Positions 10,022 to 48,404 of a stretch of 64,000 bases of DNA are shown here, one piece after another. Under the pieces are notes generated by a model. It ran no database searches and was not told the origin of the DNA. It saw only the letters and a list, made by a program, of their open reading frames with translations. The first letter of the stretch is position 1. Every line of letters starts with the position of its first letter. Source of the stretch: a virus (lineage: Duplodnaviria > Caudoviricetes); the IMG/VR virus record IMGVR_UViG_3300032116_022045. One strand, written 5' to 3'. The translations under genes were made by a program, and so were the position numbers.

Positions 10022-10852
10022 TTATTTCATATTTTTGCCAAGCAACCCTTCTCTTGCCATTCTTATTTTTAAATTTCTAACCCAATTAACTCTATAGTTA
10101 TAATTTAACATATCATACACAGTGTTTAATGCTGGTATACTAGCAAGTAAATCATCAAAACTTAAATTATCCCAATAATATTTACTTTCATTTCTTTTAA
10201 CCCATTCATAATATTGTTTTATATTATGAATTTGACCCTGTATTTCAATATAACTAGCGTTATCAGGTTTTTTACCAAATCTAAATATCCCTTTTCGTTC
10301 TCTTTCTTCTTTTTCATCATCCGATAATTTACTCCATTTACCCATTTTTGTACCCAAATGTCTATTATTGATAGTGTCGTCAATCCAATGAGCTAATTCA
10401 TGATGTATAGTACCTTTTATTTTTTTTTCACTAAATTCAGTAATAAAATTATTAGCTGTTTTTTGACCATGATAAGAAAGTAAATCCTCTTTAGCTAATT
10501 TAATATTACCATCATAACCTTCTAAAAAAGAAATAGCACCCTTATGTACAAGCAATGAAATTATATTAACATCAGAATTATAAAAATTACTTCCAAAGTC
10601 ACCAAAATTGTTTATAAAAATTTTACAAGGGTTAATCTTATTAGCTTTAATTGCTAATTCAGTCTTTAATATACTAGTGTCTGTTTCTTTAAATTTAAAC
10701 ATATTCTTAGTAAGAATACCAGTTCTGTTTAATTCATCAATGTCTTTTTTGAAATAATTGTTATACAATAAATCAACATCTTCATCAACCGCTGTCAATC
10801 TTTCTAATAACAAATTTTCCCTTAATAATTGTTTAATAGTTTCTTTTAACAT
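10022..10852 (-). CDS. HExxH zincin-like protein with putative head-targeting N-terminus
   Basis: TIHHELAHWID. Start is moved to ATG 10852 (MLKETIKQLLRENLLLE) because the late motif lies at 10869-10876. Confidence 0.6.
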   Translation of the reverse strand: MLKETIKQLLRENLLLERLTAVDEDVDLLYNNYFKKDIDELNRTGILTKNMFKFKETDTSILKTELAIKANKINPCKIFINNFGDFGSNFYNSDVNIISLLVHKGAISFLEGYDGNIKLAKEDLLSYHGQKTANNFITEFSEKKIKGTIHHELAHWIDDTINNRHLGTKMGKWSKLSDDEKEERERKGIFRFGKKPDNASYIEIQGQIHNIKQYYEWVKRNESKYYWDNLSFDDLLASIPALNTVYDMLNYNYRVNWVRNLKIRMAREGLLGKNMK

Positions 10853-11012
10853 AATATTAATTTTATTAATAAATATTGACAAAATAATAAAAATGACTTA
10901 TATTTATTAATGAGTTAACTACACATCGGTTCAGAGAATTTAAAGTCTTTGGAATTGATATATGTCAATAAATGAATCGGTGTAATAATAACAATAAAAT
11001 TAAAAGTTAATT

Positions 11013-11901: not shown

Positions 11902-13800
11902 TTATCTCAATTCAGCAACATTGAATGTAGGTATACCATCTACACGTACATGGCCATAGAACCTATTGTTCACAACCTTCTTAGCGTAACGTGTCATGAT
12001 TCCTTTAACAGGAGCAAAGTTAAATGGATTGTACATAGTTGGGGTTAACTGAAGAGGTACGTATGGAGCGTAGATGTAACCAGTATCCAACAATGATTTA
12101 CCTTTATGACCGATAATCACAGAGTAAGCTGGGGAGTATGGGTCACGATAAACTTGGTAACGACCACTTAAAGAACCGATTCTCTCAATACCCATGTTAT
12201 ATTGGTCTTGCTCTGGATTTGCATCAGATACGTGGAAGTATTCTAAGTCATCGAATACAGCTGAAATTTCAGAAGATACAACGATAAAGTTAGCACCACC
12301 ACGAAGAGTAGATTTATGGATTTGAGCAGAGATTTGGTTAATTCTTGTGATAAGAGTTTGATTCCAGTCTTTCTGAGTATAAGGTGCAGCAGCAGAAGAT
12401 GCTTTTCTCCAACCATTATAGTCCCAACGCAATTGCCATGCAGCAGCTTTACGAAGGTCTCTTAAGATTTCACGGTCAATCTCAGCAGCTACTTGTTCAG
12501 ACAACATAGCAGTTAATTCAGCTTCAGCATCAATGTTGTGGAATGCACTAACGTCTTGTGCTAATTCTGGAGACCAAGTTGCACGTAATTTTCTTTCTTC
12601 AACAGAAACAACAACTTCATCAAGTTTAAAGGAAACTTCACCAAGTTCAGTTTCAAGTTCTAAAGAAGCGTATTCAGCCCAAGCGAAAACGTATGCAGGG
12701 TTAGTAGTTAAACCAGATACGGAGTTTGCAATACCAGTAGCTGGAGAAGTAGTACCAGTTGCACCAACGTAACCATCATAAGTAGAAGTACCAGCTTTAG
12801 CAGTACCAGAAGCGGTAGTACCTACAGGGTGACGAAGGTCAAGCTCGATATACATTACACCAGCAGGAGATACTAAAGTACCTTTATTTTGAACGATAGC
12901 TTTACCATACTGTTGAGTTACAAGTCTAAATGGAACTTCACCACCAGCAGCTACAACAACGTTACCATCTGGGTCAGTAATAGCGTTACTAGTAACACAA
13001 ATTAAAGAAGCTAAGAAAGATTCAGTATCAATGTTGTTACCATCTGGGCCAGTTAATACTTCAGCACCATTAGCAGCACCAGCACCACCTGAGAAACCAG
13101 AAAGACCAACGATAACGCTTCTTACAGTACCATCTTGTGCAGTAGGAAGAATGTTACCACCAGTAGTTGCACTAAAGGAACCATCATTAGTAAATACATA
13201 TGCTTGAAGAGCAGACATATTAATACTCTTAATAGTAAGGGTACCTTTAGAGTTATCAAACATACCGTCATTGTAGAAAATGTCGTATAAGTTTTTAGCC
13301 ATAAACTGAGTTAAAGGCTGAGAAGCTTTAGTTACAGCAACTGGAAGTGCAGCAGCAGTAGCAACACCGTTGTGTTCACCATTAAGACCAGTGTGAGCAG
13401 AATAAGTTGTACCATAAGGTAAAGTTGCATAATCATTACCAGCAACACCATTACCGTCAACACGGCTAGAAGTTTGTGGTACGAAGTAGAACAATTTACC
13501 GATTGGCATGTTCATTGCTTGTACAGATACGATATCATTAGCAAGCAATTTAGAGAAAACACGTCTTACGATAGGAAACACTACAGTTTCAAAAGAACCA
13601 GAACTGGTTGCTGTAGTAGATTCAGTCAATAAGTTAGAAGCTTGATTTTCGTACAACTGTGCGATGTTTTCTTTAACGTGGCCTTTAAGACCTTCGAGGA
13701 AGCCTAAGCTATCCCATTTTTCTTGGGTTTCTTTACGGATTGCTTTCATATGGTTTAATCCGATATTTCCCACTTGTCCAGAAGTTAATAAATGTGACAT
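11902..13800 (-). CDS. gp23: major capsid protein (T4 gp23-like)
   Basis: FPIVRRVFSKLLANDIVSVQAM; RKLRATWSPELAQD; EIDREI; YAPYVPL; KGIMTRYA; strong high-expression codon bias. Confidence 0.96.
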   Translation of the reverse strand: MSHLLTSGQVGNIGLNHMKAIRKETQEKWDSLGFLEGLKGHVKENIAQLYENQASNLLTESTTATSSGSFETVVFPIVRRVFSKLLANDIVSVQAMNMPIGKLFYFVPQTSSRVDGNGVAGNDYATLPYGTTYSAHTGLNGEHNGVATAAALPVAVTKASQPLTQFMAKNLYDIFYNDGMFDNSKGTLTIKSINMSALQAYVFTNDGSFSATTGGNILPTAQDGTVRSVIVGLSGFSGGAGAANGAEVLTGPDGNNIDTESFLASLICVTSNAITDPDGNVVVAAGGEVPFRLVTQQYGKAIVQNKGTLVSPAGVMYIELDLRHPVGTTASGTAKAGTSTYDGYVGATGTTSPATGIANSVSGLTTNPAYVFAWAEYASLELETELGEVSFKLDEVVVSVEERKLRATWSPELAQDVSAFHNIDAEAELTAMLSEQVAAEIDREILRDLRKAAAWQLRWDYNGWRKASSAAAPYTQKDWNQTLITRINQISAQIHKSTLRGGANFIVVSSEISAVFDDLEYFHVSDANPEQDQYNMGIERIGSLSGRYQVYRDPYSPAYSVIIGHKGKSLLDTGYIYAPYVPLQLTPTMYNPFNFAPVKGIMTRYAKKVVNNRFYGHVRVDGIPTFNVAELR

Positions 13801-15147: not shown

Positions 15148-15861
15148 TTATGATAATAAGAAATTATCTAAATTATTTTTAATATTTTCGTTTATTATAT
15201 TATTTTTTTGTTTAAAGTTTTCTACAAATGGTTGTGCTTCTTCTATGTTATTAAACATCCATGCATCTGGTGTTGATGGTGCTGTTACAACGTCCCAACA
15301 AATTATTTCAAAATCATCTTGTACAATTTGTTCACCGTTTTTACCTTCTTTTAAGCTACCAACACCTCTTGATGAAACACCTATTTTAATTCTATTTCTT
15401 AATAAGTTTGCGACTTCATCACCTTTTGTTGATACTATACCATAATTAATGAAACCTGGTGTCATTAATATTTCCATTTTACCCATAAGGGTTTTACCTT
15501 CCCACCATGTTTCTAATATGTTATGAGATATTCTATCAGCAGCTATTATTGAAGTATCTGGATGGTCCAATTCACCTACAGCACTTCTTTCCTTTATCAT
15601 TTTTTGATAAAGTTCATTTTGTTTTCTTAAAACTTCTTCAGGATAAATTCTACCGTTTCTGTTTAATACACCATATTTTTGCAATATAACGTAAACAACA
15701 AGTGGGTCTTCAATTATTAGTTTACCAGTTTCTAATTTTTTTATTTCATTTATAAACGGTAAATTTCTTGGTTCATTAGGACTAATGTAACCAGCATCAT
15801 ATTCAATTAATATACCCCTACCACTTTGTCCTCTTTTAAGTATTTTTAATTCGTTATCCAT
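15148..15861 (-). CDS. gp21: prohead protease (T4 gp21-like)
   Basis: NRNGRIYP; GELDHP; GVSSRGVGS; WDVVTAPSTPDA. Confidence 0.93.
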   Translation of the reverse strand: MDNELKILKRGQSGRGILIEYDAGYISPNEPRNLPFINEIKKLETGKLIIEDPLVVYVILQKYGVLNRNGRIYPEEVLRKQNELYQKMIKERSAVGELDHPDTSIIAADRISHNILETWWEGKTLMGKMEILMTPGFINYGIVSTKGDEVANLLRNRIKIGVSSRGVGSLKEGKNGEQIVQDDFEIICWDVVTAPSTPDAWMFNNIEEAQPFVENFKQKNNIINENIKNNLDNFLLS

Positions 15862-17847: not shown

Positions 17848-20800
17848 TTATTCATCTAACATTTTATCAATTTCATTTATTATCTGATTGATATCGTTAT
17901 TTATCTTGACATTTTTATCAATAATTTTAATATTATCCATTTTTTTATTTACGTCCAGACCATCAACAGATTCAATAAGGTCAACAAACCTATTTTTATA
18001 TTTATTGGTTCTATTAACTAATTTATTAGTCAATAATTTTTTTTCCTCTGTTATTAATTTTAACCCTTCTGTTAATGTTTCACTAGCCTCACCACCTGCT
18101 GGCGCTTCTGGTGCAGCAGCTTCACCACCTTCTGGTGTCTCACCACCTGTCTCACCACCTAATTCTGGTGTTTCGCCACCTTCTGGCGTTTCTGGTGTTG
18201 TACCACCTAATCCACCACCTAGACCTCCACCGCCTCCGCCACCAAATGATGGTGTTGCAGTTTCAGTGCTAGCAGCAGCTTCACCACCGCCTTTTAAAGC
18301 AGCTTCATAATCACCATATATTTTATCAACATCATCAAACATACCAGTATGCTTAATAACATTAGCTGTATTAGCTATTTCACCAGATGCGGCTTTTTCC
18401 ATTCTTTGTTCTAATAAATCTTTTTTAATTTCATCATTAGACCAACCTAAAATTTCTCTATGCGCCCTTGTCCAAGACATAGTACCAAAACCATTACCAA
18501 TATCTGAAACAGCGTCTTTAAGTAATGTTATTTTTTGTTGTAGATGTTCAATTTTAAGCATTTCAGCTTGTGTTGATGGATTGTTTAATGTTAATGAAAA
18601 ATTATCCAAATCATCTTCAAAACCTAATAAATATAAATGTATAATAGCAATCTTATTAAGTTCTTGTAACATTGATTGTTGTACTCTATTTACAGTTCTT
18701 GAAAAACGTATATCTTGTAATGCTAAATTTTTACCTTCACCAGATGTTTCATCAAAACCTAAAAATGGTTTAGGTATTCTTAACGCAGTAAATAAATTAT
18801 TTCTAAGGTATTCTATATCTGCTATTTGGTCCAAATTAGACGCACCTGGTAAAGTATCTATAGGATTTGGTGCATCTTCTGAACGAACTGGAATAAAGAA
18901 ATCTTGGTCGTTTGATAATTGATTAAATCTTAAATCCATTTGACCAGTTTGAGAATCAATTATTGGTGTTCTTTTAAATCTATCAGCAATTTCATTAACA
19001 TAAGCTGGTACATCAGCATCATCAATATTACCAACATAAATTTTATAAACTCTTCTTTCTGGTGCTCTAGTCACACGATATACTAACATTGAATCTTCAG
19101 CTAAAATAAGCTGTTTCCATATACGTCTAGCCTTTTCTAAAATAGATGTTCCGTAAGGTAATCTTCTATCATCACCTAATAATCTAAAGTGAGCCATTTG
19201 CCATGAATTAAATTCAACATCACGACCTCTCCAATAAAATTTAACTTTGTCTGAATTTGGAACATTATTATTAACACTATGACTTCCAGAAATCATATCA
19301 AATAATCCGCTTTCTCTTCTCTCCATTTCATAATTAGGCATTTGTTTAGCGCCAATTATACCATGTTTATCATTAACATTAAGAAAAACGAAATTATCAC
19401 CATATTTACAATTTGACAAAAACACACCAGAAGTTCTTGAATATGAACTATTTGAATCAAACCCACAGACTGGAAAATTGTGTCTATCATGTTCACCATT
19501 TGGCCCGACAGCTTCTAAACAATAAACATCAGCTGTTTCATTTAATTTAATAACAGAAATTACTTTATGATTAATAACTTTAGTTTTTGTTTTACCCTCA
19601 AAAATAGCTTTGCATTTTAAATATTCTTTATCTAAAATTATTTCTGGTTTAATACTAAAAACAAATTCAAAATAATTTTTATTTGTTTTTCTAAAAATTA
19701 ATTTATTTAAAGTTGTCGTGTTAATTGATTTAGTTATATCTTTTCTAAGTGTGTAGGTCTCTTTTAATAAATTGATAAATTCTTGGTCTGTTTTTAATAA
19801 TTTAGCTAATTTATTAATACCTATATAATTTTGGTTATTTATAATAATATTAGAAATATAATTTAAACACGCATGACTAATTTCAATAGTCATACCTTTT
19901 TTAGTTTTTTTAATAAAATCTTTGTTTGACCAATTAACTAACATTTTATTTGAGCGTATTTCATTATGTTCTGTGTGTAAATCACTATTATTATACAACT
20001 CAAAAAATTTTGGGTAAACACCAGACATTTCTTCAGATAAACGTTTTTTTCTCTTATCTGACCTTAAATATTTATCAATACCTTCTAATCTTTTCTTTAT
20101 AACTTCTGGTTTTTTACGATACTCGTTTAAATTTTTAGATAATTTTTCATGCAAATTAGAATGTTCATTAAAACTCATTCTTTTTAAATTATTTGGGTTA
20201 TTATCTCTTTTTTTAAAATTAATATGGTGTGTTAACCATTTTTCACCGCTAATTTTTTCTTTTTCAGAATCAATTAGACAATTTTTAGCGATTATTCTAT
20301 GAGTATATTCATATTTATCACTACTAGGGTTATAAATTTTTTCATAACCATTTAATTTACCATAGTTTTCTACACTAGTTTTTGTGTAAAACGGCATTAA
20401 AGACTGACCTTCAGTTAATTCATCAGCTCGTTTAAAAGAACCGTCTCTAAGCATATATTCATGGTCTGGTGTTGTATCAATATAAGTACCATCATCTAAT
20501 GTTACCCTATATAATTCACTATTTCGTCTGGTTAAATCACACCAAACTATTTTACTTGGAACAATAGCCTTAGTAACATCTTGAATAGCATATGACCAAA
20601 CTTCTTCACCATTTTTAACTCTATTAGATAATTCTTTAATTGTTATTTCTGTACCATCTAATAATGGGATAATACTATTTTCTCTAATAGGTGTATTTCT
20701 TGTCCACATAGGTAATGATGTATGTATATCTAATCTATTAAAAAATAAATCTTGTAATATTGTTTTAACACGATTACTTTCAGAATAAACATTTAATACT

Positions 20801-21153
20801 TTTCCTTTATCATTAACTGTTGTTGCTTCTTCCATAATAATATCAAGAGCAGCAGCAATGATTGGATAAAATTCCATAGCTTCAAAATCAGCATAAGAAC
20901 CTATACGAGTTGTTTCATAATTAATTGATTGTTGATAAAGTCCGTTTTCGACTTTTTTCCACATTTGAGACAAATATTTATTTTGTTGTGCTTGTAATTT
21001 CGCCAACTCATATTCTCTCTTATCTGTGGTTTTTAATAATTCTTTACCTATATTAAATCTTTGTGGTTGATTATATACATTCTTTAATTTAGCAGAATCT
21101 GGGCCAATTACTTGACCTAATCTTTGAAATATTGTTAATTTTTTATCAGACAT
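17848..21153 (-). CDS. gp20: portal protein (T4 gp20-like) with an HNH-containing intein
   Basis: Exteins WTRNT|CKYGDNF; LILAEDSMLVYRVTRAPERRVYKIYVGN; DTLPGASNLDQIADIEYL; ALRIPKPFL. Confidence 0.93.
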   Translation of the reverse strand: MSDKKLTIFQRLGQVIGPDSAKLKNVYNQPQRFNIGKELLKTTDKREYELAKLQAQQNKYLSQMWKKVENGLYQQSINYETTRIGSYADFEAMEFYPIIAAALDIIMEEATTVNDKGKVLNVYSESNRVKTILQDLFFNRLDIHTSLPMWTRNTPIRENSIIPLLDGTEITIKELSNRVKNGEEVWSYAIQDVTKAIVPSKIVWCDLTRRNSELYRVTLDDGTYIDTTPDHEYMLRDGSFKRADELTEGQSLMPFYTKTSVENYGKLNGYEKIYNPSSDKYEYTHRIIAKNCLIDSEKEKISGEKWLTHHINFKKRDNNPNNLKRMSFNEHSNLHEKLSKNLNEYRKKPEVIKKRLEGIDKYLRSDKRKKRLSEEMSGVYPKFFELYNNSDLHTEHNEIRSNKMLVNWSNKDFIKKTKKGMTIEISHACLNYISNIIINNQNYIGINKLAKLLKTDQEFINLLKETYTLRKDITKSINTTTLNKLIFRKTNKNYFEFVFSIKPEIILDKEYLKCKAIFEGKTKTKVINHKVISVIKLNETADVYCLEAVGPNGEHDRHNFPVCGFDSNSSYSRTSGVFLSNCKYGDNFVFLNVNDKHGIIGAKQMPNYEMERRESGLFDMISGSHSVNNNVPNSDKVKFYWRGRDVEFNSWQMAHFRLLGDDRRLPYGTSILEKARRIWKQLILAEDSMLVYRVTRAPERRVYKIYVGNIDDADVPAYVNEIADRFKRTPIIDSQTGQMDLRFNQLSNDQDFFIPVRSEDAPNPIDTLPGASNLDQIADIEYLRNNLFTALRIPKPFLGFDETSGEGKNLALQDIRFSRTVNRVQQSMLQELNKIAIIHLYLLGFEDDLDNFSLTLNNPSTQAEMLKIEHLQQKITLLKDAVSDIGNGFGTMSWTRAHREILGWSNDEIKKDLLEQRMEKAASGEIANTANVIKHTGMFDDVDKIYGDYEAALKGGGEAAASTETATPSFGGGGGGGLGGGLGGTTPETPEGGETPELGGETGGETPEGGEAAAPEAPAGGEASETLTEGLKLITEEKKLLTNKLVNRTNKYKNRFVDLIESVDGLDVNKKMDNIKIIDKNVKINNDINQIINEIDKMLDE
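19411..20691 (-). mobile_element. 427-aa intein with HNH endonuclease; atypical (Pro1, block-F Cys, Ser-Asn end)
   Basis: PIRENSIIPLLDG (block A), TTPDHEY (block B), HHINFKKRDNNPNNL (HNH), VYCLEAV (block F), GVFLSN/C (block G). Confidence 0.88.
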
Positions 21154-30366: not shown

Positions 30367-31797
30367 TCACCAAAAAGTACCGCCCCCACTCAAACCAAGC
30401 AATTTAGAATATCTTGGAAGTCGGCAGCTCCAGTAACCTGGTGTTGTCTTATCATTTTTACTTTTACAATTATGTCTATCAGCAAATCTTTTTCTAGCTT
30501 TTGGGTCTCTTAATTTAACAGCTAAATTACCACCACCAGATTTAGCACCAAAAGATACTTTTTTAATATTACCTGATTTTGGGTCTTTAACATAAACATA
30601 GAATTTTTTAGAACCACCTCTTTTTGGTTTGTTTAATTGTACCTTTTTACCTTTATATTCAGCTTCCTTTAATGATTCTTTATTAACTTCTTCAAATATA
30701 AAATTCATTTTTAATTTCTGGTTATTGTATTCGACATACATATTATCAAAATCATTTATAATAAAAGAATCGTTTTCATTTAAAGCAAGTAAATTATTTT
30801 TATATAATTTTTTTACTTCAGTCATTAAATTCATGAATTTTTCTGAACCATATCTAAATACTGATTCACCTAATGCAATACCATTATCTAAATGATATTG
30901 TAATTCAGGTGATACTTGAACATTTTTTGTTAATTGCATTGGTTTTGACCATTCACTATAATCATCATTAATATTACTATCTAAAAAATGATATACTTCT
31001 TCAACATCATCAGCAGAAGTTGCGATATGGTCTAATGCCCAACCATGACCATCTGATAAAATAGAATCAACTTTATCACAGTCCATAGATAATATTTCTT
31101 CTACAGCGTCACATATTGTTTTTAAGTTAGCCCAAAACATATAGTTATTAGTCTCAATTTCATCGTCATGGTTAACGTTTTGATAATCGTTTGATGGATT
31201 ATATTCATTACTACCTTTTGGTGCGAATATGCTTAGCTTTTTGGGGTTAGATAATAAAAAGTTTTCACTAGATTCATCCACAGTTTCTTCATCACCTTTA
31301 TTATCAACATTTTCATCAGAATCAATATTGCTGTTATCATCAATATTATCATTGCCATCATCGCTAGTATTAGACTGATTAGTGTTTTCATCATTTTTTC
31401 CAGATTTTTTTACTTTTTTAATTATATCTTTTTGGTCATCAGCATCCATTTCACCAGTATGTGTTGCTGACAATAATGAATTAATAGCAAATTTTTCTAA
31501 TTCAAAATCTGGTTGACCTTGTTCATCTGTGTATTGTCTAAGTGATTGACCTAATTTACCAGTTAATTGTTGTATAAATTTCTTTGGGTCTTCTTCTTCA
31601 TCAGCTTCAACACCAGCGTCAAATGGTTCTTTTTCAAAAGGCATTTCACCAGAATCAGCATCTGTAGGTTCTGTTGTATTATCTACTGCTTGATTGTCCA
31701 CTGGTTGATTATCCATTGGTTCGTCCATTGGTTGTTCCATTGGTTCATCAGCAGGGATATCAGTAGGTTCACCCATTGGCTGTTCCATTGGTGCCAT
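30367..31797 (-). CDS. modular late protein, probably the C-terminal part of a -1 frameshift fusion with 31869-32771
   Basis: The frame is open upstream to the A10 run; the annotated ATG lacks the AT-rich leader; C-terminal KFYVYVKDP...FADRHNC...YWSC module. Confidence 0.7.
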   Translation of the reverse strand: MAPMEQPMGEPTDIPADEPMEQPMDEPMDNQPVDNQAVDNTTEPTDADSGEMPFEKEPFDAGVEADEEEDPKKFIQQLTGKLGQSLRQYTDEQGQPDFELEKFAINSLLSATHTGEMDADDQKDIIKKVKKSGKNDENTNQSNTSDDGNDNIDDNSNIDSDENVDNKGDEETVDESSENFLLSNPKKLSIFAPKGSNEYNPSNDYQNVNHDDEIETNNYMFWANLKTICDAVEEILSMDCDKVDSILSDGHGWALDHIATSADDVEEVYHFLDSNINDDYSEWSKPMQLTKNVQVSPELQYHLDNGIALGESVFRYGSEKFMNLMTEVKKLYKNNLLALNENDSFIINDFDNMYVEYNNQKLKMNFIFEEVNKESLKEAEYKGKKVQLNKPKRGGSKKFYVYVKDPKSGNIKKVSFGAKSGGGNLAVKLRDPKARKRFADRHNCKSKNDKTTPGYWSCRLPRYSKLLGLSGGGTFW

Positions 31798-31868
31798 AGG
31801 TGCTGGTTGTGCTGGTTTAGGTGAAGATATCTTTAATTTATATTTAACTTCTTCAGTTAACTTATCAA

Positions 31869-32771
31869 TTAAACTTTTTTTTTTAATTTAACACCTCTAC
31901 CTTTTAATATATCAGCTCTAGTAACTTTACCATCACCAGTTAAATCAGGAAAACTTTTTTTACGTTCATCAATATTTTTAGATGGTTTAATGTATATTCT
32001 ATATACATTGCTACCTAATGAATCAATATCATTATACTTTTTAAAACCTAAGTCATCTTTACCATCTATATCACCTAACATAAAATTAGCATTACCATGT
32101 TCATTTGAAACATCTTGAATAAAAGAATCCAATTTTTCAATATCTTCATCAGATAAACCACTATCGTCACCATTTATTAAGGATGACATAGCCCATTCAG
32201 GTACTTCATAAGCAATTAAATCATCATCTTCACTATCATCATCAATCATGTCATCAATAGCTTGTTCATATTCAGTTAATTCAACTTCATCTATATCATA
32301 TTCCATCATTGGCATATCTTCTTCAAGATTACCATGACCGCTAAAACCATTACTTTTCATTTCTGCAAAACCAGCTGCCATAGGTGTTTCTGATAATAAA
32401 TTATCATTTTCAAACACATTTATTTCACCATCAAAATTATACGCTTCAGCCAAACTTTTGAATTTTAGGTTTAAATGTTTAATTGCCTTTGCGTAAGAAG
32501 GATAAGCTTCTTGTTTTTTATTTTGCAATCCACCAATATATTTAAAATCTTCAGCAATTAAATTATTTAACTTATTTGCTTTTTTAATATACCATTCATG
32601 ATTTTCTCTGATAACAGCATAGGCATTACCATCAGGTCCTACTTTGGTTAATTCAACAGCATAATTTTTTTTATCTTCATTTATAGAAGAAATACCCATT
32701 AATTGTTTTTGACGTTCAAGTATTTCGTTACCTTTTAAACCAACTGGACTTATGATTAATTGTTTTTTCAT
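31869..32771 (-). CDS. late protein ending in an EF-hand-like DLTGDGKVTRAD motif followed by KKKV-stop
   Basis: 300-aa ORF whose stop immediately follows the A10 run. Confidence 0.75.
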   Translation of the reverse strand: MKKQLIISPVGLKGNEILERQKQLMGISSINEDKKNYAVELTKVGPDGNAYAVIRENHEWYIKKANKLNNLIAEDFKYIGGLQNKKQEAYPSYAKAIKHLNLKFKSLAEAYNFDGEINVFENDNLLSETPMAAGFAEMKSNGFSGHGNLEEDMPMMEYDIDEVELTEYEQAIDDMIDDDSEDDDLIAYEVPEWAMSSLINGDDSGLSDEDIEKLDSFIQDVSNEHGNANFMLGDIDGKDDLGFKKYNDIDSLGSNVYRIYIKPSKNIDERKKSFPDLTGDGKVTRADILKGRGVKLKKKV

Positions 32772-32798
32772 ATTTTTTTTTATTTAATTATATTATTT

Positions 32799-33053
32799 TT
32801 AATAAACACCACCAATTATATTAGTACCTTGATATACATTTTGTTTTTCACCAAGTAAGAAACAACCAGTTCCACCACTAACAGAATTAATCCAAATACT
32901 TATATTTGAGGACATACCAACATTTATTGTTTGACCATTTATGTTTATTGTACATCCACTATTACCACCATATACTTCACTATATGTATGTGCGGTTAAA
33001 TTAGCATTTTGTGCTGGTACTATTATACTATGTATATCATTTATTTTAGGCAT
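32799..33053 (-). CDS. small hypothetical late protein
   Basis: 84 aa; late motif at 33071-33078. Confidence 0.65.
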   Translation of the reverse strand: MPKINDIHSIIVPAQNANLTAHTYSEVYGGNSGCTININGQTINVGMSSNISIWINSVSGGTGCFLLGEKQNVYQGTNIIGGVY

Positions 33054-33148
33054 ATAGAAAATATTTTATAATAAATATATTGATATAAATAAAAAAGCAC
33101 CAAATATTTGGTGCTTTTTAAAATTTAATTTTAATTATATCTTTTATT

Positions 33149-33796
33149 TTACAAATTAAATGCTTTGATTGTTAATTCAAAAGGTTTATTTTCTATGTTT
33201 TTAACTAAATCTAACATTTTTTGTGCTAATTCTCTAACTTCAAGTTGAGCATGTTCACTATTCCTTAATTTTTGGAAATGATAAAACGACCTCCAATTAA
33301 ACATAACATCCATTGTTATTTGAGAATTCATTGTTTTAAAAAATCTTGCACTTTCTTTAGCTCTTTTTCTCCCTAAAATTGGTGTCAATTCTTCTAAACA
33401 TTTGTGATATAACTCATTACTTTCTTGAGTAAATTCTTCAAGTCTTTTTAACCAAGTATATGATGTTGTATTCATTTCAGTTTTCCAACCATCATCTTTT
33501 GGTAAATATAGGTTATCTTCTTTTAATTCTTTATATCTGGCTGATTCACCATTAATACTAACACCAATTCTATGTTTTAATAGATGGATATGTGTTGCTT
33601 GGTCAACCGTAACCAAAAAATGTAATGATGATTTTTCAAATGGTGTGTGATGACCTTCATTAGCCAACATACTTAATAATTTACCAACTCTATTTAACTT
33701 TTCTTCAGTTAAATCTCTTGATGTTGATGTCCATGCTGATTGGGCGTGAATAACATCAGACCCATAATAACCTAATAATTCTACTTTATTCTCCAT
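33149..33796 (-). CDS. thyX: FAD-dependent thymidylate synthase
   Basis: GHHTPFE; KHRIGVSINGESARY (RHRx7SxR variant); NWRSFYHFQKLR...AQLEVR. Confidence 0.92.
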   Translation of the reverse strand: MENKVELLGYYGSDVIHAQSAWTSTSRDLTEEKLNRVGKLLSMLANEGHHTPFEKSSLHFLVTVDQATHIHLLKHRIGVSINGESARYKELKEDNLYLPKDDGWKTEMNTTSYTWLKRLEEFTQESNELYHKCLEELTPILGRKRAKESARFFKTMNSQITMDVMFNWRSFYHFQKLRNSEHAQLEVRELAQKMLDLVKNIENKPFELTIKAFNL

Positions 33797-42835: not shown

Positions 42836-45328
42836 ATGAATAGAGAAGTTGAACCAAAAGTTAAAATAATTATCACAAATGCCAGTAAAGAGGCTCTTAA
42901 TCTTGATGATAATAAGTTAAGGCCAGAACATATATTGTTATCTATGTTAAACGATAATAATAATGGATGTACAACAATATTAAAAAAATTAAAAATAGAT
43001 GTTGATGAATTATATGATAGAATAATTGATTTTATCAAAAGAAATGATGTCTTACCTAAAATAAAAATTACTAGGCGTACACCACCATTTTCAGATGAAA
43101 CAAAAAAATTAATTGTTTTATTGGATAAAGAATGTGAAAAATTAAATGATAATATAATTGATACAACACATATAATGTTAGTATATTTGTCAATGAAATC
43201 ACCAATAAATGATTTATTAAATGTGCACTACTCGCTAGACTATAATAAATTTAAAAACGAAATTATGAGTAATATGAATAATGAAAAAAACAATGTATTT
43301 AGTGACGATAATGATAACGACATTGAATATCTTAAAAAGAGAAAAGTTGATGATAAATCTAAAACACCTGTTTTAGATAATTTCTGTAAAGATTTATCTA
43401 AATCAGCAGAAAAAAATGAACTTGACCCAGTTATTGGTAGAGAAAAAGAAATTAAAAGAATTTCTCAAGTTTTAAGTAGAAGAAAAAAAAATAACCCAAT
43501 TTTAATCGGTGAAGCTGGAACTGGTAAAACAGCAATAGTTGAAGGGTTAGCTCAATTAATAAAAAATAATAACGCACCAAGAACCCTACAAAATAAAAGA
43601 ATATATAGTTTGGATATGGGGTTGGTTGTGGCTGGTACTAAATACCGTGGACAATTTGAAGAAAGAATGAAAGCCATTCTTGAGGAATGTAAAGCAAATA
43701 AACATATTATATTGTTTATTGATGAATTACATACAATAGTTGGTGCTGGAAATACATCTGGGTCATTAGACGCTTCTAATATATTTAAACCAGCGTTAGC
43801 TAGAGGTGAAATACAAGTTATTGGGGCAACAACATTAGATGAATATCGTGAAAATATAGAAAAAGATAGTGCTTTAACAAGAAGATTTCAACAAATTATG
43901 GTTGAAGAACCTACTTTGGAAGAAACAAAAAATATTTTATTTAATATAAAAGAAAAATACGAAAAACATCACAAAGTAATTTATACTAATGAAGCTATTA
44001 ATGAATGTGTTAAATTAGCCGATAGATATATTACCGATAGAGCAATGCCAGATAAAGCTATTGATATCATGGATGAAGCTGGTGCCTCAACCAATATTAC
44101 CATAGAAAAACCAGAAAATATTAAACTATTAGAAAAAAGAAAACAAGAATTGATGGTGATTAAAAAAGAAGTAGTGTTAAAACAAAAGTATGAAGAAGCA
44201 GCTAAACTAAGAGATGAAGAAAAAAATATTATTGAAGAGTTAAATAAAGCTAACGCTATATGGAATGAAACATTAAGTAATGATGCAACTGAAATAACTG
44301 TAGATATAATCGCTGAAGTTGTTTCTAGTATGACTGGAATACCACTAACTAAAATATCAACAAAAGAAGCTGAAAAACTAATAAACTTAGATAAAGAATT
44401 ATCTAGTAAAGTTATTGGTCAAGATAGTGCTGTAACTAAAGTAGTTAAAGCAATAAAAAGAAGTCGTGTTGGTATTAAAAATAAAAATAAACCTGTCGCT
44501 AGTTTCATTTTTTTAGGAAATAGCGGAACGGGAAAAACTTTTTTAGCTAAATTATTGGCTGAAAAAGTTTATGGTGATGAAGATGCGTTGATAAGATTAG
44601 ATATGTCTGAATATATGGAAAAACATAATGTATCTAGACTTATTGGTTCACCTCCAGGATATGTTGGTCATGAACAAGGTGGTCAATTAACAGAAAAAGT
44701 TAGAAGAAAACCACATTGCGTTATTTTATTTGATGAAATAGAAAAAGCTCACGAAGATATTTTTAATTTACTCCTACAAGTATTAGATGAAGGACAGTTA
44801 ACTGATGGATTGGGTAGAAAAATTAATTTTAAAAACGCATTAATAATCCTAACTTCTAATATCGGTGTTAAAGAAGTAAACTCATTTGGTAAAACTATGG
44901 GGTTTGAAACATCTAAATCAATAATTAATGAAGAAAATAAAGTACGTTCAATTATTGATAAAGCATTAAAGAAAAAATTTAAACCAGAATTTTTGAATAG
45001 AATTGATGAAGCAATTACATTTAATAGATTAACAAAAGAAGATATTCAAAAAATAGTCTATTTAGAAATAAATAAACTTGAAGAAAGATTAAAAGAACTA
45101 AACTTTAAACTTGAAATAACAAAAGAAGCAGTAGAATTTTTGGGTGATGAAGGTTATGATGAAAACTATGGTGCCAGACCATTAAATAGAACAATACAAT
45201 ATCATATCGAAGACCAAATCTCAGATGAAATATTAAATGGTAATATTAAAGATGGTGACACAATACTAATATCTTTTAATAAACAAAAAAAATTAATACA
45301 AATAAAAAGTAAAAAAACAAAAAAATGA
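42836..45328 (+). CDS. clpC: ClpC/ClpB-family AAA+ chaperone
   Basis: Clp N-domain; GEAGTGKT; LFIDELH; UVR-like middle domain; GNSGTGKT; RLIGSPPGYVG; MGF loop; YGARPL. Confidence 0.9.
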   Translation: MNREVEPKVKIIITNASKEALNLDDNKLRPEHILLSMLNDNNNGCTTILKKLKIDVDELYDRIIDFIKRNDVLPKIKITRRTPPFSDETKKLIVLLDKECEKLNDNIIDTTHIMLVYLSMKSPINDLLNVHYSLDYNKFKNEIMSNMNNEKNNVFSDDNDNDIEYLKKRKVDDKSKTPVLDNFCKDLSKSAEKNELDPVIGREKEIKRISQVLSRRKKNNPILIGEAGTGKTAIVEGLAQLIKNNNAPRTLQNKRIYSLDMGLVVAGTKYRGQFEERMKAILEECKANKHIILFIDELHTIVGAGNTSGSLDASNIFKPALARGEIQVIGATTLDEYRENIEKDSALTRRFQQIMVEEPTLEETKNILFNIKEKYEKHHKVIYTNEAINECVKLADRYITDRAMPDKAIDIMDEAGASTNITIEKPENIKLLEKRKQELMVIKKEVVLKQKYEEAAKLRDEEKNIIEELNKANAIWNETLSNDATEITVDIIAEVVSSMTGIPLTKISTKEAEKLINLDKELSSKVIGQDSAVTKVVKAIKRSRVGIKNKNKPVASFIFLGNSGTGKTFLAKLLAEKVYGDEDALIRLDMSEYMEKHNVSRLIGSPPGYVGHEQGGQLTEKVRRKPHCVILFDEIEKAHEDIFNLLLQVLDEGQLTDGLGRKINFKNALIILTSNIGVKEVNSFGKTMGFETSKSIINEENKVRSIIDKALKKKFKPEFLNRIDEAITFNRLTKEDIQKIVYLEINKLEERLKELNFKLEITKEAVEFLGDEGYDENYGARPLNRTIQYHIEDQISDEILNGNIKDGDTILISFNKQKKLIQIKSKKTKK

Positions 45329-46128: not shown

Positions 46129-47149
46129 ATGCCATATAAATATAAAAAAGTTGGTAGTGAATATTGTGTCTATAAAAAAGAAGACAATACTAAAGTAGGT
46201 TGTACAAAAAAATCTATTAAAAAATATCTTTCCGCTTTACACGCCAATGTTGATGAATCAAATCAAATTAAAGGAGGTAAAGCAGATAACTTATCAATAA
46301 AAGATATTGCAAAAAAAATTTAATATATCTGTAGATGATATAAAAAAACAATTGGAAAAAGGTATAAGTGTTGAAAAAGAACACACACCTAATGAAGATA
46401 AAGCTAAAGAAATTGCTAAAGACCATTTATCTGAAATTCCAGATTATTATGATAGATTAGTTAAAATGGAAAAAACAGCTAAAAAAAAACATAATTTAAA
46501 TGAGATTGTTAAAAACAAATTAATAAAAAATTTAAAAAAAAGAACATTATTTATAAACGAATCTAAATTAAACGGTAAAACAATTATAAATGTTGATATA
46601 CAACCAGAATATGAAAATTGGGTAAGTTTTAATCTGAATGAATGGGTTGGTTTTATAAATCAAAATGCTGACGTTAATGATATAGTTTTTCTTTATAACG
46701 GTGCGGATACATTAGGGATGATTAACGAATATTCTTATAAAGAGTGGTTAATAAATTTAGGTATTGATGAAGATGTTATTTATAATGCTACATTTTATGA
46801 CAAAGGATACGCTTTTTTTAGATATTGTTTAGATAATTCAATTGATGAAGATAACATTGTTGATTTAATAAAATATATGGTTAAACACAATATTAATGAT
46901 AGTAGAGACATTGATGAAGACATGTGGAATAATTATATGGAAGAAACAAATCATGACCAAGAAGATGTTAGAGAATTATTAGAAAACGCTGGTGATATGA
47001 TAAATATACCAGATTTAATGGATTTCATTAAAAAGTATTCAAACATTGTTTTAACTGGTGGTGGGATAAATGAATGTTTAAAAGAAGTAGAAATAGCACT
47101 ATTAGCTTTAAATAAAGAATTTACTATTTTAAATAAATATACTTATTAA
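46129..47149 (+). CDS. single gene apparently split at an A8 run (ORFs 46129-46323 and 46307-47149); contains a DUF5661-like module
   Basis: KGGKAD...DIAKK | FNIS...QLEKGISVEKEHT...EIAKDHLSE.PDYY is one continuous motif across the frame break. Confidence 0.6.
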
Positions 47150-47150
47150 T

Positions 47151-48404
47151 ATGAGGTTAATAGAAGAGATTAAAGAAAAATTAAATTTTTATTTAACTGA
47201 AAAATTATCAGATATAGGTGAATTACATCCAAATGTAAAAAAAAATGAAATACCACCAATATTATTAACTTGGAATGAATATTATAAGTTAGTAAACGAA
47301 AATGATAAATCACATCCAAGTTCAGCATACAATAGAAGCTATAATAAAAATGATGTTTTTAATTGTGGTAATGGTGAATGTAAAACCATAAAAAATAAAA
47401 CTGTTGGTAATTTACTATTAAAATTTATATTAAAAAAAGAAAAAGCACAATACGCTAAATGGGATGGAGAAAAATACCTTGGAACGTATAGTGAAGATGA
47501 ATTAATAAAAATAGGTAAAAAACCATATATCTATTCAATATATTGTACACATAATAATATTGTTGTTGGTGAAGCGATTGATGAATGGGGTTGTGTTTTA
47601 ATTTCAGTGGTAAATGAATTTAGAAGTCTTGGGATTGGTGAAGAATTAATTAAAATGTATAGGAAAATATATCCATATAAACCAAGTGGGGGGTTAACAC
47701 CATCTGGTTATACACAACTAAGAAAATATTATAACCACATGGTAAAAGAAGCTCAATCAAATGGTGTTTATAGTGATTTAATTAAACGTGGTGAGTTAGA
47801 TAAAAAAAGATATTATGATATAATTAACTCAGTTTCAAAAGAAAAATTTTCAGATATAAAAACAAATAAATTAAAAGATGTTTATGGTAATAATAACGAA
47901 CCAATATACATTATAGATAATAATATAGTTATAATATTTGATTCTAAAATAAAGGATTTAAATGATGAATCATTCTCAGATTTTGATGATGATTTTTTAA
48001 AAGACTTAATTTATTGTTATATATACGTTAATGAATTTAATGATTACCCACAAGTTTTTAACTGTTATGGTAATGATAAATACATTAAACAAGGTATTGA
48101 AATATTAGCATCTCTAAACAAAGATTATGGCGGTTTAGGTGATTATTATTTTAGAAATTTTACTGGTAATGTTAAAACTACATTAGAAGACATTTGGAAT
48201 GACAATAATAAATACACTATAGAGGTAATTAAAGATGGTGGTTATATTAGTAGCATACCATTAACGTTAATTAAACCAAAAAAACCTATAAATAATGTGG
48301 TTAAACAACTACAATCTATTTCTAAGTTATGGTTTAAGAAAAACGATAAATATGATGAATTATATGATAGAATCCATGAATTTGCTTATGGTTTATTAGA
48401 TTAA
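47151..48404 (+). CDS. GNAT-like domain protein with head-targeting-like N-terminus
   Basis: VVNEFRSLGIGEELI acetyl-CoA motif A; MRLIEEIKEKLNFYLTE. Confidence 0.55.
   Translation: MRLIEEIKEKLNFYLTEKLSDIGELHPNVKKNEIPPILLTWNEYYKLVNENDKSHPSSAYNRSYNKNDVFNCGNGECKTIKNKTVGNLLLKFILKKEKAQYAKWDGEKYLGTYSEDELIKIGKKPYIYSIYCTHNNIVVGEAIDEWGCVLISVVNEFRSLGIGEELIKMYRKIYPYKPSGGLTPSGYTQLRKYYNHMVKEAQSNGVYSDLIKRGELDKKRYYDIINSVSKEKFSDIKTNKLKDVYGNNNEPIYIIDNNIVIIFDSKIKDLNDESFSDFDDDFLKDLIYCYIYVNEFNDYPQVFNCYGNDKYIKQGIEILASLNKDYGGLGDYYFRNFTGNVKTTLEDIWNDNNKYTIEVIKDGGYISSIPLTLIKPKKPINNVVKQLQSISKLWFKKNDKYDELYDRIHEFAYGLLD

Follow-up and report, generated by a model that had tools for sequence, protein, structure and literature searches.

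The A-B junction

Two adjacent open reading frames (ORFs) on the minus strand, here called ORF A and ORF B, were studied in a stretch of 64,000 nucleotides (nt) of viral DNA (Duplodnaviria; Caudoviricetes; IMG/VR record IMGVR_UViG_3300032116_022045), the whole of which is referred to below as the window. The two ORFs meet at a run of ten A residues (A10; Table 1), and our analysis suggests that they constitute one recoded gene, the long form of which is, on balance, produced chiefly by RNA polymerase slippage at this run.

The 3' end of ORF A reads GGT GTT AAA TTA AAA AAA AAA GTT TAA. Past its own TAA, the -1 frame reads I KKK SLIDKLTEEVKYKLKISSPKPAQPAP, with 26 codons after KKK, then reaches an ATG at 31797 and stays open from there to a stop at 30369-30367. 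No ATG, GTG or TTG occurs in the window between the -1 stop and 31797. According to this layout, what gene callers see as ORF B would in reality be the C-terminal 502 residues of a fusion of 801 amino acids (aa; 299+502), with the sequence ...KLKKKSLIDK... at the join and ...KLKKKSLIDKLTE as the expected junction peptide. The ending of ORF A, the position of the run, the -1 TAA, the 26 open codons, the 476-aa ORF and the size of 801 aa had all been given in an initial annotation of the window, and re-derivation returned every one of them unchanged. The A10 is the only 10-base homopolymer inside the genes of the window; runs of A13 and A11 sit in the tRNA region. Shorter runs were also seen: an A9 run lies directly ahead of the ATG of ORF A, and further A9/T9 runs lie inside the ORFs 42836..45328, 47151..48404 and 10022..10882.

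Conservation of the junction among relatives

Sequences related to A, to B or to naturally fused A-B proteins were collected from IMG/VR and JGI/ENA metagenomes. In each locus, tblastn served to map the N-terminal domain of A and the core of B, with the conserved helical core of B as the B probe, and 99 distinct homologous junctions with protein identities of 34-90% were compared. The initial annotation had proposed checking whether homologues also stop after KKK and continue in the -1 frame, and this -1 relation was found at 99 of the 99 junctions. The stop-to-stop overlap, from the 0-frame stop to the -1-frame stop, amounts to 13-64 nt in all 99, and the A run always lies inside it. The run is A10 at 87 junctions, A9 at nine and A11 at three, with the phase AAA AAA AAA throughout. 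The residue ahead of KKK is variable (L, V, S, T and others), yet its final base is A in the A10 forms. When the N-terminal domain was represented by clusters at 50% identity (n = 120), 107 representatives were unfused and 13 were in-frame fusions; 96 of the 107 unfused ones carry KKK or KK within their last 12 residues.

The junction also stands out in codon usage. AAA accounts for 80% of the lysine codons in the family genes, and KKK away from the junction has the spelling AAAAAAAAA just twice among 76 cases, the other 74 being broken by AAG, whereas the junction KKK is all-A in every case. The corresponding values for the window are 87% AAA, with KKK all-A in 1 of 11 occurrences and interrupted in 10. 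The spelling of KKK in the family agrees with the general avoidance of iterated AAA codons (Koutmou et al., PMC4363877). Since all-A KKK is constant at the junction and rare elsewhere, the run appears to be selected for here and against everywhere else; that is, selection keeps it from synonymous interruption, as is expected of a slippage site. The only other KKK spelled in this way in the window forms codons 59-61 of the ORF 46307..47149.

Beyond the run, the -1 frame of every relative contains (S/T)L..E-x-x-K-Y-K-L-K. In alignment A2, E11 of B is kept in at least 93% of the sequences, and K14 and K18 are invariant. The entropy summed over eight aligned codons is 2.33, 3.90 and 7.65 at -1-frame positions 1, 2 and 3, respectively. 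With variation concentrated at third codon positions, these alignments indicate that selection acts at the protein level on the -1 stretch that lacks a start codon. No ATG, GTG or TTG stands between the -1 stop and the KYKLK motif in 82 of 95 junctions, and the first ATG after KYKLK comes at a median of 41 codons, ranging from 2 to 130 codons in most relatives. Because the position of this ATG varies and lies past the conserved peptide, the ATG at 31797 is not a conserved start. Homologues with an independent start for B, which the initial annotation had named as evidence that would speak against recoding, were sought among the relatives and were not found.

In-frame and run-less homologues

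Continuous A-B proteins occur in the protein database, namely P0003 (...GDVKKKILKETKYKLKL...), P0009 (...ADLKKKTLSEAKKYKLKL...) and P0012. These three are known as proteins, and the in-frame layout at the DNA level was taken from three contigs of a marine clade (L224-226). The contigs read TTA AAA AAA AAA AGA TTA ACT, i.e. the run is A11, and A and B form one in-frame gene. The P0009 protein corresponds exactly to the L001 type plus one A. Proteins of the marine clade (P0011-17 and P0019; eight clusters with mutual identities of 61-97%) have ILKKK(R/G)LTE in common, with a run of A11 or A10+G, and P0015 is identical to the L224 protein. Both other frames of L224-226 close immediately, as a message with A10 would end in KKKD* and one with A12 in KKKKIN*. 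Exactly this layout is known from Thermus thermophilus dnaX, in which an in-frame run is accompanied by stops close by in both other frames. The arrangement in these contigs is the mirror image of the split A10 gene in the window. Meanwhile, in the distant homologues P0223, P0224 and P0234, the N-terminal domain leads straight into TKFKLKV and the B core, without KKK.

Because natural in-frame homologues occur, we judge the A-B fusion to be a real protein in nature, and the compared loci indicate that the recoding architecture is conserved and under selection. The initial annotation had left two readings side by side, two products at a set ratio or a homopolymer assembly error. The former is borne out by the 99 junctions and the in-frame homologues, and the latter fails, as the A10 layout is the norm of the family.

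RNA structure around the run

No structure adjoins the run. On the 3' side, the 60 nt following it have a mean minimum free energy (MFE) of -8.2 (z = -0.77), and the stem-loop or pseudoknot that stimulates -1 frameshifting of the dnaX and insertion sequence (IS) type, usually at 5-9 nt, was not seen. On the 5' side no structure was detected either (z = -0.46), including a hairpin like that of Roseiflexus IS630, and no Rfam element matched near the run. A hairpin TTAACT/AGTTAA after the run and a GAGGTG before it had been pointed out in the initial annotation. Both are present, but a role as stimulators is improbable, since the hairpin is not conserved and Shine-Dalgarno (SD) usage is lacking in the phage: an SD-like motif precedes the start in 1 of 58 window genes (20 nt scanned), and the leaders are A/T-rich. 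The near-absence of SD motifs and the A/T-rich leaders fit a Bacteroidota-type host.

Another hairpin was found in 62 of 95 relatives, starting at most 16 nt after the KYKLK codons and 35-65 nt 3' of the run. It is formed by 44 different, covarying arm pairs (e.g. GGGGCT/GGCCCC, GCTGGTTCT/AGAACCAGC and GGGTAGT/GCTACCC), with stems of up to 13 base pairs (bp). The 48-nt segments past KYKLK have a mean MFE of -13.9 (z -1.75), and controls 90 and 400 nt further on have -8.0 and -5.3. The hairpin is absent from the equivalent place in the window's own gene (MFE -1.7). Its distance from the run exceeds that of a classical stimulator, and its location 3' of the run means that it cannot act on a polymerase there.

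Polymerase or ribosome

In the model that we propose, the genome directly encodes the short form A. One extra A in the message would allow translation to pass ...LKKK into SLIDKLTEEVKYKLK..., giving the 801-aa A-B fusion, so that both products would share the conserved N-terminal domain. Most likely, the extra A would stem from transcriptional slippage, in which the host RNA polymerase lets the nascent RNA re-pair out of register with the T10 template. Ribosomes slipping -1 on A_AAA_AAA may account for a smaller part of the fusion, and both processes may contribute. Which of the two machines slips, and in what ratio the products are made, are the parts of the model that we infer.

For bacterial RNA polymerase, the slippage threshold is 9 bases and the RNA:DNA hybrid comprises 9-10 bp; in T. 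thermophilus dnaX, the short product arises through slippage of the polymerase on nine A/T (PMC5009743). As in that gene, the A-B family has a homopolymer of at least 9 bases inside the coding sequence (A10 in the window, A9-A11 in the 99 junctions), together with a conserved alternative-frame architecture giving two products. By comparison, a ribosomal -1 shift needs 7 bases only, and A_AAA_AAG is the better ribosomal slip site in Escherichia coli. AAG was never found as the final codon of the run in the 99 junctions. The polymerase is favoured because the kept length of 9-11 fits both the hybrid and the threshold, AAG is absent, no structure adjoins the run and SD pairing is not in use. In addition, the run has been retained in the in-frame clade, where it would be pointless if slippage were no longer in use.

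Several points weigh against this reading. It is built on sequence logic. The run length and phase could be inherited, the 99 junctions being related lineages, and the slippage rules applied are those of other bacteria, from which the polymerase and ribosomes of the phage's host may differ. Furthermore, an A_AAA_AAA heptamer, a legitimate -1 site, lies in the 0-frame phase in every junction, and 43 of the 99 junctions have GAAGG or GAGG 6-10 nt ahead of the run, as compared with a background of 13%. The last two observations would be expected if the same two products came mainly from the ribosome, by a classical -1 tandem slip on A_AAA_AAA in which the P- and A-site tRNA-Lys re-pair one base back, possibly aided by the GAGG-like motif upstream or by a delay in decoding successive AAA-Lys codons. 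Poly-A is also intrinsically shift-prone for ribosomes (PMC4363877; PMC5009743). Ribosome sliding on A9 and A10 was weak when studied in a purified E. coli system (PMC4363877), a result with no bearing on classical tandem slippage. Such a ribosomal origin is possible, although we incline against it. Against it stand the constant retention of 9-11 A's, when seven suffice, and a last codon that is never AAG. No 3' stimulator lies at 5-9 nt, and the hairpin of the relatives begins 35-65 nt away and is missing in the window. SD sites are essentially lacking, and the upstream motif doubles as codons of a conserved T/S-E-G; as the phage makes no use of SD pairing, the motif is more likely coding than stimulatory. 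Finally, the fusion of the in-frame clade needs no ribosomal shift, and the run is nevertheless retained.

Slippage by the polymerase, with or without a ribosomal share, has also to be weighed against three explanations that dispense with recoding of a single genotype. The first is variation at the DNA level, where A10 and A11 would interconvert in replication and give mixed split and fused genotypes with one form per particle. The A10 split and A11 in-frame states are indeed both present among the relatives, and a few scattered in-frame proteins, such as P0009, look like A11 versions of A10 lineages. However, the states are clade-specific and stable (99 split junctions, and three in-frame loci in one clade), and the alternative-frame stops and the -1 peptide are kept in both, which fits the production of both forms from one genotype. 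We consider this explanation very unlikely. Even less probable is that A and B are separate genes, with B starting from the ATG at 31797 or from a non-canonical start and the run representing plain lysine codons of an AT-rich genome. That ATG is present and AAA is the preferred lysine codon, but the first ATG lies anywhere from 2 to 130 codons after KYKLK in most relatives, A9 is avoided elsewhere, and in-frame fusions exist. An independent start for B was rejected on the unconserved ATG position and on the selection acting on the -1 peptide before any start. Least credible of all is a sequencing or assembly error (the true run being A11, in one gene) or a recent inactivating frameshift: homopolymers are error-prone, but A10 and the -1 layout are shared by 87 of 99 independent assemblies from many samples, and the assembly error was rejected for this reason.

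Comparison with known recoding systems

The closest parallel to the A-B gene is T. thermophilus dnaX (tau/gamma, run of 9 A/T; PMC5009743), with a homopolymer of at least 9 bases in the gene, two products with a common N-terminus and stops nearby in the non-zero frames. The direction is reversed, in that the window and most relatives encode the short form and would have to slip to make the long one; moreover, A-B is a phage late gene and is known here from its sequence. With E. coli dnaX and the IS elements, which combine A_AAA_AAG, a 5' SD-like element and a 3' stem-loop, the A-B family has in common an in-phase A-rich lysine heptamer, the -1 direction and, in under half of its members, an SD-like motif. 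It differs in that AAG is never used, no 3' structure is adjacent, the run always measures 9-11 and SD pairing is apparently unused.

Recoding of phage structural genes is exemplified by T7 gene 10A/10B, the major head protein of Lactobacillus phage A2 and lambda gpG/gpGT. In these systems, as proposed for A-B, a late gene yields mostly a short form, together with a smaller, fixed proportion of a form extended at its C-terminus. In contrast, the slip site of A-B is a homopolymer, its products are much larger (300 and 801 aa), and they have no similarity to capsid proteins or chaperones; nor is A-B positioned between tube and tape-measure genes as is lambda gpG/gpGT. A tail assembly chaperone of the G/GT type was considered and rejected, because such proteins have about 100-150 aa each, against 300 and 801 aa, and because the gene follows thyX and a hairpin with no tube gene upstream. 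Neither Pfam nor PHROGs gave a chaperone match for A or B; the fold searches listed no chaperone, which is weak evidence on its own.

In Shigella spa13/mxiE and in the poly-A tracts of Buchnera and Blochmannia, A/T runs of at least 9 likewise give a fraction of frame-corrected mRNA. The A-B site differs in being conserved across a large virus family with both products selected, and it would be neither a regulatory switch nor a rescue from decay.

Domain organization of A and B

The N-terminal domain of ORF A belongs to a family of more than 449 clusters at E<=1e-10. The DUF6926 module that follows in ORF A is also present in giant multi-domain phage proteins with ArdA or DUF3008. ORF B is acidic and largely disordered. 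Its Pro/Ala linker is followed by a helical core, then by a second helical domain and finally by the basic C-terminal module phrog_7595. In pelagiphages and roseophages the phrog_7595 module is a small separate gene, which in podophages adjoins head genes. Among the relatives, at least five unrelated C-terminal modules were seen on an otherwise conserved frame (...GLSGGGTWW, ...VQPDPKA.K, ...GNYELNMYIA, ...QKAHCQGKKK and others), and swapped B C-termini were seen in ORFs of L004, L008, L121, L063 and others. As far as can be read from the sequences, the varied ends point to module swapping.

Searches for known relatives of these domains gave little. The ORF A model had no match among solved folds (best Foldseek E 0.07; best VIA Z 5.5, within noise), and the AlphaFold model of ORF B had no convincing Foldseek or VIA match, its middle domain being without a solved-structure match although it is predicted with a local distance difference test score (pLDDT) around 90. 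Sequence and profile searches of the PDB with A and B were empty. Family searches returned only DUF6926 from Pfam, only phrog_7595, of unknown function, from PHROGs, and nothing from NCBIfam. With tblastn against cultured phages, A had no match and B matched via its C-terminal module only, and the matches in the ESM Atlas were unnamed viral clusters only. In the literature, no paper mentioning DUF6926 and none describing an A-B gene was found. The recoding mechanism is of a known kind; for the protein family, no description was found in the literature.

Possible role in the head

Three glutamates of B (E11, E204 and E407) are kept in at least 93% of the sequences, have L, I or V (one M) at -2 and lie in low-pLDDT linkers. 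In A, the nearly invariant E32, E128 and E167 show the same -2 L/I/V pattern in disordered linkers. The motif (L/I/V)-x-E is cut by T4-type prohead proteases. In the window, a gp21-family protease gene (phrog_207 head maturation protease, E 2.3e-41) lies 16 kb downstream. Because L/I/V-x-E occurs at module borders and a prohead protease is encoded, our working guess, which we hold tentatively and with less than even confidence, is that A/B is a head-internal or head-bound modular protein processed on maturation. The proteins are probably virion-associated. The conserved sites are weak evidence in this respect, the motif being short and possibly conserved for other reasons.

A/B resembles the T4 head-internal proteins and other gp21 substrates in having L/I/V-x-E at disordered module borders and a protease gene in the same late cluster. 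Its swappable C-terminal modules, and DUF6926 in common with the ArdA-containing giants, recall the polyvalent multi-domain phage proteins. It differs from the T4 internal proteins and Alt, to which A and B have no similarity in sequence or fold, and the cleavage and packaging of A/B are predictions from its sequence. One could go further and regard the A run as a switch whose ratio evolution can tune, acting on a modular polyprotein that is packaged in the heads of aquatic T4-type phages. Genotypes with A10 would then give mostly the short form and those with A11 mostly the long form, with polymerase slippage supplying the other; the long form would carry swappable cargo modules freed by the prohead protease, and the post-KYKLK hairpin would add a further layer of control. 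This extended scenario is speculative and, in our view, unlikely as a whole.

Genomic context

The window has a G+C content of 23-30% over most of its length. Head genes of the T4 type lie on its minus strand, namely those for the large terminase, portal, gp21-type prohead protease and major head protein. Transcription toward low coordinates passes thyX, a hairpin, an 84-aa ORF, ORF A and ORF B, followed by ORFs of 452, 150, 995, 135 and 213 aa, then of 389 and 127 aa, and then by the terminase and portal genes. The hairpin just past thyX, which is accompanied by a T run, probably ends the upstream transcription unit, and a new unit would start with the 84-aa ORF, followed by A and B. As for a late promoter, the count of TATAAATA was at chance level. 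The portal gene may contain a mobile element or an intein-like sequence as an insert, and the major head protein has a long unexplained N-terminal extension (Table 1).

Table 1. Positions of features at the A-B locus, elsewhere in the window and in related contigs (window coordinates unless a contig is named)
Feature	Position	Strand	Remarks
ORF A	31869..32771	-	300 aa; predicted short product, C-terminus ...GVKLKKKV
N-terminal domain of ORF A, residues 1-130	32382..32771	-	beta-sheet plus helix core 33-116, pLDDT >90
DUF6926 (PF21977), ORF A residues 188-222	32106..32210	-	E 2.1e-9, 37.9 bits; gathering cutoff 27
GAGGTG 5' of the run	31892..31897	-	SD-like look; probably just codons of R-G-V
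TAA closing the -1 frame just 5' of the run	31888..31890	-	
A10 run, candidate slip site (0 frame TTA AAA AAA AAA)	31875..31884	-	T10 on the + strand
TAA ending the 0 frame, one codon past the run	31869..31871	-	
-1-frame stretch without start codon	31798..31887	-	I KKK SLIDKLTE EVKYKLK ISSPKPAQPAP
Conserved L-T-E in the start-less stretch	31860-31852	-	
AU-rich hairpin TTAACT/AGTTAA	31860-31844	-	6 bp
KYKLK in the start-less stretch	31845-31831	-	
Place equivalent to the post-KYKLK hairpin of relatives	31795-31833	-	
ORF B as seen by gene callers	30367..31797	-	476 aa from first ATG
Helical core of B, PFDAGVEADEE.DPKKFI..L.GKLGQSLR...	31405..31638	-	best-conserved part of the long form; B probe
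Helical middle domain of B, NNYMFW...DGHGWALDHIATSADD...	30745..31152	-	pLDDT around 90
Basic C-terminal module of B, phrog_7595	30370..30663	-	preceded by conserved L/I-x-E407
Leader of ORF A	32772-32800	-	A9 run directly ahead of the ATG
Other KKK spelled all-A	46481-46489	+	
thyX	33796..33149	-	
Hairpin and T run past thyX	33092-33119	-	12 bp
Portal gene	17848-21153	-	1101 aa; HNH endonuclease match 259-344 ahead of portal match 662-922
gp21-family protease gene	15861..15148	-	
Major head protein gene	11902-13800	-	632 aa; family match 371-609 only
Post-KYKLK hairpin in relatives	L008:2990-3025; L021, L024, L135, L138, L202		
A11 run of the marine clade	L224:1095-1105; L225:3450-3460; L226:1026-1036		in-frame gene

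Significance

In hundreds of aquatic phage genomes, this gene is annotated automatically as two hypothetical proteins with no relation to each other, and recognition of the slip site would correct the gene model of the family. The known cases of utilised homopolymer slippage are few, and the A-B family would add to them a large, naturally replicated set: some 100 split junctions, a sister clade that is in frame yet retains the run, and outgroups without a run. Such a set may serve as a system for comparing polymerase and ribosomal slippage in hosts without Shine-Dalgarno pairing. Meanwhile, a conserved N-terminal domain that would be produced on its own as well as in fusion with a variable modular tail offers a starting point toward the role of an abundant phage protein.

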